In this document: in pieces, positions 12,496 to 25,957 of the stretch | Layout of the letters: every line of letters starts with the position of its first letter | How positions within the stretch are numbered: position 1 is the first letter of the stretch | Assembly (NCBI RefSeq): GCF_036365525.1 | Contig: NC_090377.1 | Location: 77,485,198 to 77,549,197, forward strand | Reading direction: 5' to 3' | Source of the DNA: Heterodontus francisci | Lineage: Eukaryota | DNA length: 64,000 bases | Program-made: the position numbers and the translations under genes | Notes under the pieces: generated by a model | Seen by the model: the letters and a program-made list of their open reading frames with translations, nothing else | Databases searched by the model: none | Told to the model about the DNA's origin: nothing

Positions 12496-15064
12496 AGTTA
12501 CTTTGGTTTTCGAAATCAATGTTTACCGACGAGAAGCGAAAGCCATGACCTGAGTTGCGAAATCCACGCGTGAAATGTTAAATTAAAGCATAACTGATCT
12601 GCAGCATGAATATCACAGAACATTTTGTATCGAGATCCCCCTATGGGAAATGACAATGTAGCAAAAGCATTCGAGATGCATAATTAATATTAAATAATGC
12701 ATAGACGGAGCCTATATCATTGCTGCTAAATGTTTTAATTAGTACTGTGTCCCCTATGCCATAGAATAAACAGTAACGCCCTGTCATATATATCAATATA
12801 TATTCCCTGTATTTTGTTGTTCTAGTTTATAACCTGCAATATTCATACCCTTGTAGTCAGCATTTACGCTAATTTCTGCACTTAGACAAAACATAACTGG
12901 ACAATAAATGCCGAAAACAACGGTAATGGAAAATGACAATAATATTGTTGCGATTTATGGGAAGACATAAACAATTAATGCTAATTGTGGTTAAGCAAAT
13001 GCATTAAAAAGTGATATTAAAAGTTGCACTGTGAAAATTATGTTTTCTTCCCAAAGGTCTTGTGCAACAACAGCTGCTTCTGTAAAGTACGGGAGACACC
13101 ATTTTAATGTTATTGTTTTCTAATAAAAGAATTAATACAAGTTGAAAGAGATCATAAATAGCGCGTTTAAACTGCTGGCATAGGCGATAAACATTTTTTC
13201 AATGTAGGAAATGATATGGCCACAAGTTAGCAAATATGTCTTATGGTTAGCAAACATAATAACCTTTCAGATCCTTGAAACAGCTCGTACGTTCGGACCG
13301 TTATCTCAAAAAATCAAAAAAACTTGTATCAATGATGATACGAAATAAAAATTTCTGCAAACAAGGATTTTTGAGATATTGATATTCATGTTAATTTCGA
13401 ACCTTGTTTATTAATATTTATCTGTAGTCCAACAATCAAAATGAATGAATGCTACGATGAATTAATTGTGAAGCTTTGCAGTATTCTTTTGAGTGGAGAT
13501 GTTAGATAAACAAAGATGTATGGATTCGGAATTAAATGCAGTCGCTCGAAATATCTGTCCTCTGGCGCCCTCATCTGTTTCCTTTGATTTTAACAGTCAT
13601 ATTACTTTCACAGTGGCTCCAAAATGTTAATTTCTCTGACAGCCAGCGCCTTTTGGAAATAATACTTAAGGAACCAAATTAAAAATAAAACACTTTGTCT
13701 ATATAAGTTAACTTTTGTATTGATTAGTTATTTTACATCGACACAATTTGAAAATACTGCTATAAGGGATAAATAAATGTATGAATTGATTTGTTCTTAA
13801 TAAAACTGACCTCTGGACTTTTGTATTGCTCTTTTGTGAGCGATAGCAGTTAGCTAGCTAACGAACAATTGACTTCTCCGTGCCGTTGTTAAACATAGAT
13901 GCCTTGAAATATTTATTATCAAGGGCAAGTGATGAGAGAAAAATAAAGTTTGAATTAAGCATTTTCATAAAATCTATCTCATAACCTGTAGTCTGTTGAA
14001 AATCCGTTTGAGCACTGAACGCAAAATCTCTTTATATCTGGTTGATATTGGTGGCAGATTGGAAGACTGCAGAAAATGTCAATTCTCGTTGATATTGGCA
14101 TAATACTGATTAATGAAACTGAGCAAAGTAGTGTTAAACACAATACAAAGAAGATATAGTGGCAAGGGCATTCGTTTGGAAATTGATTGCATGACTTCAA
14201 AATCCATGATTTCTGTCATTTATATTTTAATTACCTTTGGTACTGTGTGAAGGGAAAGTTTTAATAGGACAGAAAAGTCACAAAGCTGGTTTAAAAAGAT
14301 ACGTAGACAGATTACACCAGGTCTCTGTGCGCAGCAGTAGTTCACTTCTGCTAGCTCAAGGAAGGTTTACGGCAATAGACTAAATATTTGTTTGATCGTC
14401 TAGTGCAGGTACCGCGAGGTGTAATTCTAGAGCGTTAAGGGTTATAGCAGGCAATAAAAGGTCCTTAAATGCTTTTTGTCTGACGCAAGTTGCAATGTCA
14501 CTAAAGAGGTTTATTCCAGATTGCGGTTCACTGTTCTACTAAATTATTGCTTCATTCTGCTGCTTGGGTTTTAAAAAATGCGCGTTTACAAGTCTAGGTA
14601 ACCTGCAATCAAATATTGTAAATTGAATTCACCAGAGAAAAGTCATACAAAGAAAAACTGAAAGAATCAGCTGATACAAAACTCAACATTGACCTTGAGT
14701 CAACAGTACGTTAACTATAGTACAAATGTGTCATTCTGTAATGCAGCCGTGTCCTTGACGTTTGTTCACAAAGTTTAATTTGCAAAGAGTCCACACCGTG
14801 TTTTATTTACCAACTGTAGTAGAGTTACAGCAATAAAAAGATCAGGTAGTTTGGACCAGGGTGTAGTATGTGCACCTAATGGATAGCTTAGTTCCATTTC
14901 TGGGAGGTGGAATTTAACGTATTTGCTCAGTGCCTCTCACGCATATCATTCTCAACATTTGGAACAAAGAAGAATTTACGCTGACAAGTAGCGACAGAAA
15001 ACTATCAGGAATATTATATTTGTAAGTGGCTGGAGTGAACGCAATCATTTAGTGCAGTTGTAAG

Positions 15065-15593
15065 ATGGATTCGACTTCCCTGCAGTACAAACTGACGTTA
15101 GAGACATCTAGCGATAAAACAGGAATACTGCAAGATGAAGCGCGGCCGATGGAAATTGTACCAGTACTTTCCACTAACTTTGGAATTTCTTCTGCTATGT
15201 GTCCAACGCCTTTGAAAACGACTTCAAGTGGAAGGTGCCATGGATTGTACTCCGAAGGCATTTCAACTTGTGAATCGCATGGAAGCGCAGATCGGGAGAT
15301 AGTTGCTATGTCATTTGAGGCAGGTCAATTTCCTACAAACCAGCTTCAAAGTGACAGTCATATATCTTCGTTTACTAGCTACCGGCATAACCCCTGCACC
15401 AGAGGTGAATACCCTACCAACTCCTCATTTTATCAGCATTGGCCTTTAGAATATCCCCGGGCTGCACCTGTCCAGAACCAGACAGATTCCAACAATCTGG
15501 GCATGCCTGCCTTTAGCCATCCTCAGTACTGCGGAGCACCGTTTTCAGGAGGAGCACTCAACACTACAATGCCTGGTGTCCCAAGGCATTTAG
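15065..15593 (+). CDS. hoxd14: Hox paralogue group 14 protein, exon 1; spliced CDS 529+182+90=801 nt, 266 aa
   Basis: Long ORF MDSTSLQYKL...PRHL with donor TTAG|gtcggt in phase 1, matching the exon 2 acceptor. Choice of ATG and donor is less certain than for the homeobox exons. Confidence 0.8.
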
Positions 15594-16361
15594 GTCGGTC
15601 TAATATTCACACACCGCATGCCTGTCTCTCGCTGTTAGATACAGAGTTAATATTTGAGTTAAGGTTTTTAATGTGTTCAAAAGGCAAGATTAGTATTTCC
15701 GGGTCTTGCAGCAACACCCAGGTGATTGTATTTCATCGACTGTGGATGTTTTACCTTGACTGTGAATTATTGCGCATTTAATTTTTGCATGTAATTCTAG
15801 AAAAAACATGTCCACCAAACTTTAGGAGAGCTAAAACAGTTCGCTTTTCCTAAAGGTAGTTAGAATTCTTACGATGTATATTCAACACGAATATTTTACC
15901 TAAAGAAAGTGGTCGATGAATGTTAGTTCCTTTCCAGTCAATTGCTACATATTTATTTTTCATTGAAACATTTAGGAGATCCAATCAAAATTTACATTTC
16001 GTACACAAAATATGCAAATATAACAAAAGAAGAAGCATACCCACTTCAACTGAAAAATATTTACTTTGGAGAAAATGTATTACGTATTCAAATAAAAAGG
16101 GGAGTATGGGAACCCAAATTTTTAAATAAATACGAATACGTTTGATATTAAGTCTCGTCACTACTATGTTAATTTTTGAGGATAAATTAACTAACGTCAA
16201 TTAAAATAAGCGATTGTCAACGGCACTATTTGATCTTTAGTTATCATGGGGTTTGTGTATACAAGAAGATGATACGAGTACGAAAAATACACGCTGCTGT
16301 GAATTTCAGTTATTGTGGTCGAAGTTTCAAAACATATTGATGGATATGTGTATTTCTTTAG

Positions 16362-16543
16362 CATTGGGATTTACATCGCAATGGTCAACATCGCAGAACT
16401 CAATACACAGACAAAGAAAAAAACGAGTCCCTTACAGCAAACAGCAAATCGCTGAGCTGGAAATGGCTTATGAAAACAATCGATTCCTCACTCCCGAAGT
16501 CCGCTTAAACATTTCGTTCAAGTTAGGCTTAACAGAAAGGCAG
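16362..16543 (+). CDS. hoxd14: Hox14 exon 2 (linker and homeodomain residues 1-44)
   Basis: Acceptor tatttctttag|CA, strong donor CAG|gtaaga. Encodes [61 protein letters not shown]. Confidence 0.93.
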
Positions 16544-16712
16544 GTAAGAGAATCTCTTTCCAGTTTCTACAAAACAAAAGGTGAAGTCCCTGTCTGGCAA
16601 TGCTATCTCTCTTAATTGTCAACAGGTGGGCGCATTTATTCTCACAGAATATTAAACCAAGTCAGTTTATATTAGCCATCTTTTCTTCTCAAGTAGTCTG
16701 TCTATTTTTCAG

Positions 16713-16802
16713 GTGAAAATATGGTTCCAAAACCAGCGACAGAAAGAGAAAAAGCTTCTTCGTGTACAGCAATCGATAAATCCAAGTTGCCCCGGACTCT
16801 GA
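16713..16802 (+). CDS. hoxd14: Hox14 exon 3 (recognition helix and C-terminus)
   Basis: Acceptor tctatttttcag|GTG. Translates VKIWFQNQRQKEKKLLRVQQSINPSCPGL* (TGA 16800-16802). WFQNQR is the vertebrate Hox14 signature. Not shown in the ORF track. Confidence 0.94.
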   Translation: MKIWFQNQRQKEKKLLRVQQSINPSCPGL

Positions 16803-17254
16803 AATGGAATACTTCCCCTCAAATGAAGAATGGCTTTTTGAGAGTTACAGAAGCGTGTATTCGGACATGCATTGGCAAAGTCACCTCTCTTCAAATGTAT
16901 ATGCACATAGGTTATTTCGCATTCTCTCTTTCAATACTGTCCTTTTGCAGCTGCACGAGTGCAAAAAGTTTTATCTTACATTATTGTCACATCTAGTTTT
17001 CTGTGTTAAATGCTATCAACGGATTGATTCTACTAAAGGTGGCAAACAAGAAATATTTATACTGTGAGCCGAATTCGATTCTTAAAGAAAATGTTCAGCT
17101 TGATTTTCTAACATGATGATGACCTGTATACCATCTATTATGTATATAACTAATTATGTTTAGGTACATAAATGATTTTCTAAATGTTAGCGTTCATGTT
17201 TAAAGAATGATAACATTAGCATAGATTGCAGAGGAAATTGCTTCATGACTAGCA

Positions 17255-17260
17255 AATAAA
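17255..17260 (+). terminator. Candidate HoxD14 polyadenylation signal
   Basis: AATAAA about 450 nt after the stop, followed by T/GT-rich sequence. Confidence 0.4.
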
Positions 17261-18760
17261 GTTGTTAATTTCAAATTTGATATAATTGTACAAAATAATT
17301 ACGTTATATTTTCATAGAATTGTCAACGTTGTGAAGGCCTTACTTCCATAACACTGAATTCGAAACATTTTTCTTACCTTTTTCCCAAAAACTGATTATT
17401 TCACAGGCTTTAGTCAACCCGAATGCAATGGGAAGATGCCAACATTTATTCGTTGGATACTACAATGTGCTGATGTAACGCACTAAAACTGCAACACTAC
17501 AAAATAAAATCTATGACTACATTTAGATTGTAAAATACAATGAATTACCTAGACTATTTCCTCAATGGTTCATTGTGCATTTGCTGTTCTCTTCGTGTAC
17601 GCAATTTTAAATGTTAAACAGTTCCCCGTCGATTTGCCGATAACCGCACACTGGTTTCCTAAAAGAAAGGATATTTTACACTTGAACTGATGTTTCGTTG
17701 CGGGGGTCACGGAAGTCGGCAATGCTGTGATTCTGCTATGGATTATTTAGATCAAAAGAATGAACCAGTTCTTGAAAGTTTCGTGTGTAATAAGTTATAA
17801 TGGAACCGAATGCATGGTTTTATTGTAGAGGTAACTGGAACATTGGTCAGCTGAACCAGCCCATAATGTTCAAGTGCAATATATTAATATCTGAGGATCT
17901 CATCTGGGTGTAATATTTGCTTATATGTGATTTCCCTATTATTCCTCTATATTTTTCCTTTATTTACGTGTTACAATGGCAATATTTTCATTGTTGCTTC
18001 AGAGTCAGAATCAGCTCGAGGGCTTGAAGCGTAAAATTAAGAAGGAAATAAACTTGCTTCCAGTTGACTCCAAATTCATTGGCACCCATTTGCTACTGTA
18101 GTGATGATTTTGTTTTGTGGTAAAAGGCAAATATCAGAAGTGCGTTTCTGCACCTCAGAGGCGCAAATCGAAGTCCCGCCTTCTATCCGTCGCCAATATA
18201 AAGAACTAAAAGCAAAAGACACAGGTGGCAAAAAAATAACATAGCCATTACGAGCAGTCCTTCAGATTCTTCCACTACATGGGATAAAACCACGTTGCCA
18301 TCATATGCCTGCATAGAGATTCACCAATGATCGGGGAAGTTGCAAGGGCCAAACATATTTTGAGCGATTGTTGTACGTCTGTCAAAATTTCTTAACTACA
18401 ATACGTAAGTTGGACAAGAGTCTGATATTAATTTCAAACACCACATTACGATATCTGTTGTACATAACCAAAGAAATGTCTTAAAGGTATAGCAATCTTC
18501 ATAGCAATCAGACGAAAATTGTTGTAATTAGTTATTTGCAATTGAAATCAGTTGAATCAATATCTCAGATGCTACAGTTTTCAAGCACATGACTGAAGAT
18601 TTAAAAAACTGGCAAATATTGTATTTGATTTTTTAAAACTTGCATTTATGTAGTGCTTTATCACTCCCAAAAGGATCTTCACGACCATCGAATTCAGTTT
18701 TGAAATGAAATCATTTTTATGTAGGCGACTAGCAGCTACTTTGGGAATAGCAATATCCAA

Positions 18761-25706: not shown

Positions 25707-25957
25707 GAGATGTGATGCACAATCAGACTGATATAAACATTTACAGACGAGGGAGGAAGAAAAGGGTTCCTTATACGAAAACCCAGCTTAAAGAACTCGA
25801 GCGAGAATACGCCACAAACAAATTTATAACCAAGGAAAAAAGACGAAGGATATCAACAGCCACCAACCTTACCGAAAGACAAGTCACCATCTGGTTTCAG
25901 AATAGAAGAGTCAAGGAGAAAAAAGTGGTTTCCAAAGTCAAAGAAAATATACCTTGA
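25707..25957 (+). CDS. hoxd13: Homeobox D13 exon 2 (homeodomain)
   Basis: Acceptor ttttccccctcag|[66 protein letters not shown]. Confidence 0.97.

Follow-up and report, generated by a model that had tools for sequence, protein, structure and literature searches.

The window analysed here, 64,000 nucleotides of the horn shark (Heterodontus francisci) genome, contains a three-exon gene that is virtually certain to be horn shark HoxD14. The explanation that best accounts for the evidence as a whole, and that we consider highly probable, is a functional posterior HoxD14 that would serve as a transcription factor of hindgut or cloacal cells. The gene itself is already known: the gene, its three exons and its diagnostic motif have been published since 2004, and a deposited sequence record names it correctly. 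Finding HoxD14 again adds nothing on what Hox14 proteins bind or why they are kept. A spliced contig and a bias toward synonymous changes support a working HoxD14 in close relatives of the horn shark.

Structure and identity of the gene

An initial annotation of the window had joined three exons at GT-AG sites into a stop-free protein of 266 residues, lying between Evx2 and HoxD13 on the strand of the other Hox genes. Coordinates, splice sites and frame were all confirmed (Table 1), as were strand and placement by the positions of the homeoboxes. The joined exons comprise 801 nt, encoding 266 residues and a TGA stop, with no internal stop codon. The 5' UTR holds an upstream in-frame stop and no upstream ATG (ATG scan), and AATAAA motifs lie 3' of the gene at 17255, 17503 and 18047 (motif scan). 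Two stretches of N in the window (4000-4179 and 4744-4907) are both distant from HoxD14, and an Rfam search of the window returned no family at the gathering threshold.

The homeodomain spans residues 194-253, with codons 1-44 at 16412-16543 and codons 45-60 at 16713-16760. Intron 2 cuts it between Q44 and V45, in the sequence as well as in the contig joints described below. The site of this phase-0 intron is unlike anything in HoxD9-13 or Evx2, as the annotation had held: the five downstream homeoboxes are uninterrupted and that of Evx2 is split between K46 and V47. PF00046 matches exon 2 over profile positions 1-43 (E 1.3e-9) and exon 3 over positions 45-57 (E 0.0011, on its own under the curated cut-off); a Pfam search of exon 1 gave no domain. 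The homeodomain is of the Abd-B type, with R5, I47, W48, F49, Q50, N51 and R53 intact, and its helix 3 reads WFQNQR. The three-exon model is not a chance pattern, because the protein equals a deposited record and an assembled contig has both junctions exactly where they were predicted. The labels D13 to D9 in the window we take from the published gene order and from group signatures. The order of the homeoboxes matches the one described for horn shark HoxD (Evx2, D14, D13, D12, D11, D10, D9; PMC3509897).

Table 1. Positions of HoxD14 features and neighbouring homeoboxes in the window
Feature	Position	Strand	Basis or remark
Evx2 homeobox, 5' neighbour of HoxD14	8802..9324	-	split K46/V47 (9187/8843), 343-nt intron 9186-8844
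HoxD14 5' UTR, minimum extent	14938..15064	+	contig 1 of run X1 begins at 14938
HoxD14 coding exon 1, 529 nt (176 codons + 1 nt)	15065..15593	+	100% match to P0001
HoxD14 intron 1, 768 nt, phase 1, GT..AG	15594..16361	+	skipped in X1 contig
HoxD14 exon 2, 182 nt: conserved Trp184, then homeodomain residues 1-44	16362..16543	+	PF00046
HoxD14 intron 2, 169 nt, phase 0, GT..AG, inside homeobox	16544..16712	+	skipped in X1 and X2
HoxD14 exon 3, coding part, 90 nt: recognition helix VKIWFQNQRQKEKKLL, C-terminal tail, TGA	16713..16802	+	PF00046
HoxD14 3' UTR, minimum extent	16803..17983	+	contigs 1 and 2 of X1
HoxD13 homeobox, 3' neighbour of HoxD14, uninterrupted	25751..25930	+	
HoxD12, D11, D10 and D9 homeoboxes, uninterrupted	start 32819, 40935, 51717, 57834	+	

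The spliced protein is identical at 266/266 residues to a record (P0001; ACY39976.1, UniRef100_D0IN01) deposited as 'HoxD14 [Heterodontus francisci]', which bears out the annotated identity. With exon 1 alone as query, 14 proteins were matched among 30 candidates, and the same record came first at 100%. Horn shark HoxD14 is described as one of the two genes that defined vertebrate Hox14 in 2004 (PMC3509897), the founding report being cited there and in PMC8423624 as Powers and Amemiya 2004, Curr Biol 14:R183; the annotation was right, too, that the group is not new. Three exons and WFQNQR, instead of WFQNRR, are given as diagnostic of all Hox14 members (PMC3509897), and in a published figure (legend to Fig. 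5 of PMC8423624) the horn shark gene stands between evx2 and hoxd13, with the splice site inside the domain marked.

The window gene has WFQNQR in helix 3 by sequence; it has three coding exons and a homeobox intron, by its genomic GT-AG sites and by the joints in the contig; it lies between Evx2 and HoxD13 on the Hox strand; and in trees its homeodomain clusters with named Hox14 proteins, outside Hox13. Its place in the HoxD cluster and a full-length identity of 77-79% to named D14 proteins, versus 42-49% to A14, mark it as the D copy. Unlike a Hox13 gene, it has an interrupted homeobox, lacks WFQNRRV and falls outside Hox13 in the tree.

The warning that automated annotation could miss the gene held only in part: the RefSeq model (XP_067890676.1) reproduces the protein exactly, and it is the name, 'Hox-B13a-like', that is wrong. 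None of the 30 RefSeq-accessioned Hox14 rows listed had been automatically named Hox14, and 7 of the 45 cluster rows listed carried any Hox14 name. The automatic names on Hox14 proteins include Hox-D12-like, Hox-A4-like, Hox-C8-like, hhex-like, nob-1-like and MOX-2-like, among others. Because such names hide the group, name-based surveys will undercount Hox14.

Relatives of HoxD14 and group 14 in the horn shark genome

When residues 180-266 served as query, 21 proteins matched among 30 candidates, with skate, sturgeon, coelacanth, lungfish, lamprey and hagfish now represented as well; the matches listed included no name from a tetrapod or teleost. Full-length orthologues are present in sharks, rays, chimaera and sturgeon; all 13 chondrichthyan rows aligned are 262-267 residues long. 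Full-length identity to horn shark HoxD14 is 65-85% for the 12 other chondrichthyan rows, 54% for sterlet and 42-49% for coelacanth and lungfish A14. The distribution given in the initial annotation (chondrichthyans, coelacanth and lamprey) is thus correct but incomplete: Hox14 is also reported from paddlefish, sturgeon and lungfish (PMC8423624, PMC3509897, PMC3038165), a hagfish protein is named HOX14I in database rows, and gar and bowfin carry hoxd14 pseudogenes (PMC8423624).

In helix 3, WFQNQRQKEKK is invariant in 17/17 aligned rows; WFQNQR occurs in 45 of the 47 fetched proteins, the two exceptions being a 184-aa fragment and one short isoform. The Trp ten residues ahead of the homeodomain is nearly invariant (absent in sturgeon and one hagfish row); by analogy, this residue, Trp184, might bind a cofactor. 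Homeodomain identity to the window protein is 50-57/60 in other chondrichthyans and 36/60 in HoxD13. Scyliorhinus canicula HoxD14 (CBL59356.1, P0017) is 79% identical over its full length and 57/60 in the homeodomain, and Callorhinchus milii HoxD14 (ACU32581.1, P0022) 77% and 53/60; both have I6 and F20, whereas the horn shark protein has V6 and Y20. Coelacanth and lungfish HoxA14 (P0030, P0032, P0033) and cyclostome Hox14 (P0043, P0035) share the helix-3 string and the clade of the horn shark protein, with 46-52/60 identical homeodomain residues, but the former belong to the A cluster and the latter are cyclostome paralogues, whereas the horn shark gene is in the D cluster.

Hox13 proteins (HoxD13 in the window, human HOXB13 and HOXA13) have in common with HoxD14 an Abd-B-type N-terminal arm, RKKR(V/I)PY. 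They differ in an uninterrupted homeobox and WFQNRRV, versus the 44/45 intron and WFQNQRQ of Hox14, and are identical at 33-36/60 positions. The nearest natural solved homeodomains are those of HOXB13 (5edn, E 4e-17) and HOXA13 (2l7z, E 1e-15), the top structure match being an engineered tandem engrailed construct.

At homeodomain positions 6 and 20 (window 16427-16429 and 16469-16471), all 11 other chondrichthyan homeodomains of the tree have I6 and F20, versus V6 and Y20 in the horn shark. Y20 is the Hox13 residue, and V6 is present in coelacanth, lungfish and lamprey Hox14. Both V6 and Y20 also appear in the X1 contig (see below).

The first tree comprised 43 homeodomains: 21 Hox14 candidates, 21 other homeodomains of the horn shark genome and Evx2 as outgroup. 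A group-12 candidate (L028, on contig C51) was left out, as no WFQNRR homeodomain was extracted from it. The window protein falls in a Hox14 clade with SH-aLRT/bootstrap support of 99/100; the Hox13 clade received 94/99, and the sisterhood of Hox13 and Hox14 only 83.8/90. With a mixture model, the Hox14 clade received 100/98 (bootstrap/SH-aLRT; 22 of the 43 rows). The best trees never put the window gene within Hox13, at the limited power of 60 columns.

One intact Hox14 copy was found in the horn shark genome (G000), and searches for a second returned none. Three pieces of a HoxA14 remnant lie on contig C2, minus strand, some 8-11 kb upstream of the A-type Hox13 (L002:856-1170 and L001:8276-8664; G000:C2, about 74,809,775-74,812,669). 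They match HoxA14 of coelacanth and lungfish (lowest E 1.6e-7 in the loci fetched) and have in-frame stops and a degenerate helix 3. The remnant fits the group-14 pseudogenes published for cartilaginous fishes (PMC3509897). Its location at the matching place in the A cluster makes group 14 older than the cluster duplications. A tblastn search with 8 Hox14 queries of the 70 kb upstream of the Hox13 genes on contigs C33 and C51 found no remnant, the single match having an E of 0.46.

Transcription, selection and competing explanations

Two of the five sequencing runs listed contain the HoxD14 stretch; none is recorded as RNA, their RNA status being a guess of the tool. Four runs were compared with window positions 14500-18000, and contigs came from X1 and X2 only, both from the same sample of a single study; X3 and X4 (organism B) gave none, which says nothing about expression. 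Being assembled contigs, the matches carry no information on tissue, strand or level. In X1, a contig of 1377 nt runs from 14938 to 17252, leaving out 768 and 169 nt, each gap with GT..AG ends. After the shifts stated for the alignment, its joints fall exactly at 15593/16362 and 16543/16713, the two junctions that had been predicted, here in a single contig from a close relative. The 169-nt homeobox joint was also seen in X2, from the same sample as X1, and a second X1 contig carries the 3' UTR to 17983. The X1 and X2 contigs are 97-99% identical to the window and therefore come from a close relative, not from the window's own DNA. Exon 2 shows no difference from the window in either run.

In the interval 17229-18052, the two overlapping X1 contigs break near the AATAAA at 17255 and end before the one at 18047. 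These breaks are a weak hint of alternative 3' ends of HoxD14; contigs cannot show ends.

The coding differences listed between X1 and the window number seven, in six codons; five are synonymous and two nonsynonymous, and none is in the homeodomain. The resulting pN/pS is 0.12 (binomial P 0.0096; 187 synonymous and 611 nonsynonymous sites), with P = 0.021 if one further, unlisted difference in the contig piece is counted as nonsynonymous. Divergence of the 3' UTR between contig and window is 1.8%. The synonymous bias backs function but, with a single sample and few changes behind it, does not decide the matter. The initial annotation had taken the copy to be intact and functional, and the contig joints, the synonymous bias and the orthologues support a probably functional gene; we put the probability that HoxD14 makes a functional protein very high.

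Splicing alone is no proof of protein function, since the hoxd14 of bowfin, though spliced and still expressed at ancestral sites, is a pseudogene, whose locus has been proposed to be kept for its RNA or cis-regulatory DNA (gar hoxd14 is silent; PMC8423624). Horn shark HoxD14 could likewise be a transcribed relic, its locus kept for RNA or cis-regulatory DNA while the protein is dispensable or decaying. The broken HoxA14 in the same genome would suit such a history, as would V6 and Y20 at sites otherwise constant among chondrichthyans, but V6 occurs in coelacanth, lungfish and lamprey Hox14 and Y20 is the normal residue in Hox13. The open frame of 266 codons, the length kept across the chondrichthyan rows, the unchanged WFQNQRQKEKK and the excess of synonymous changes (pN/pS of about 0.12) all set the gene apart from pseudogenes of the gar and bowfin type, and we regard a relic as very unlikely. 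Extremely improbable is a lineage-specific tandem duplicate of HoxD13, or of another posterior HoxD gene, that gained its intron. HoxD13 does have the closest non-Hox14 homeodomain, Hox13 proteins are the nearest natural solved structures, RefSeq uses a Hox13 name, the two groups are weakly supported sisters, and an AU test did not reject a grouping of the window D14 with the four Hox13 alone (p 0.0625). Against this, the gene groups at 99/100 with lamprey, hagfish, coelacanth and lungfish Hox14, AU tests reject both the window D14 with D13 (p 2e-10) and all Hox14 with D13 (p 0.032), and the HoxA14 remnant indicates that the group predates cluster duplication. An origin by tandem duplication of HoxD13 is largely refuted by the clade support, the two AU rejections and the remnant.

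Expression, proposed role and cluster surroundings

Expression of HoxD14 in the catshark S. torazame is reported in a small cluster of cells around the hindgut and is absent from the neural tube, the somites and the fin folds (PMC5054437); in sharks, Hox14 expression surrounds the cloaca, and in lamprey it lies in posterior endoderm (PMC3534614). Hox13, like Hox14, is expressed near the cloaca. By analogy with catshark and lamprey, a hindgut or cloacal role of HoxD14 in the horn shark is probable. For horn shark HoxD14 itself, the literature searched yielded no data on expression site, DNA binding or loss of function. Paddlefish HoxD14 is expressed in fin buds, nested collinearly (PMC4778128), and bowfin hoxd14, with temporal collinearity, in the fin bud and the tail bud (PMC8423624), so the role of HoxD14 may not be confined to the gut. 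Together with the position between Evx2 and HoxD13, these patterns would suit a Hox gene of the canonical, collinear kind that the global HoxD landscapes drive in fin buds and the tail bud. In that case the protein would be equally functional and only its site would differ; we consider this unlikely, though well ahead of a relic.

For the hindgut or cloacal factor that we favour, spliced HoxD14 mRNA would give a nuclear homeodomain protein that binds DNA through helix 3 (I47, Q50, N51 and R53) and the N-terminal arm (R5). Activation of the gene would come late, from the 5' enhancer landscape responsible for Hox13 expression in the cloaca. That landscape is described as having served the cloaca first (PMC12675288); its link to HoxD14 is our own, because that text never mentions the gene. 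HoxD14 would help to specify the end of the gut and would be partly redundant with Hox13. Such overlap would explain the repeated loss or pseudogenisation of group 14, with one copy under selection in cartilaginous fishes.

Every one of the 20 Hox14 proteins inspected, hagfish, shark and lungfish proteins among them, has Q52 and Q54 in its recognition helix, versus R52 and V or M at position 54 in Hox9-13 of the window. In other homeodomains, position 54 contributes to specificity. Judged from these residues, Hox14 may be a factor with its own DNA code, read through Q52 and Q54, and not a spare Hox13; we regard this as possible but rather doubtful. If true, shark HoxD14 would control a hindgut or cloacal programme of its own, one lost in tetrapods and teleosts. 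Searches confined to open-access text found no DNA-binding or loss-of-function study of Hox14.

In the window, about 16 kb separate Evx2 from the HoxD13 homeobox, whereas an exact-pattern search over 60 kb upstream of the A-type Hox13 (G000:C2:74801500-74861499; L001-L005, L019) found no Evx homeobox; Evx1 may be located farther away.

A fourth, spread-out Hox cluster lies near the start of contig C51 (C51:118189-222544, minus strand; L011, L028-L031). It holds groups 13, 12 (the candidate mentioned above), 11 and 10 and a central-type homeobox across more than 100 kb, on branches longer than those of their paralogues. Divergent HoxC clusters of sharks have already been described (10.1101/2025.06.08.657570, a text that does not mention Heterodontus), and the C51 cluster is probably HoxC.
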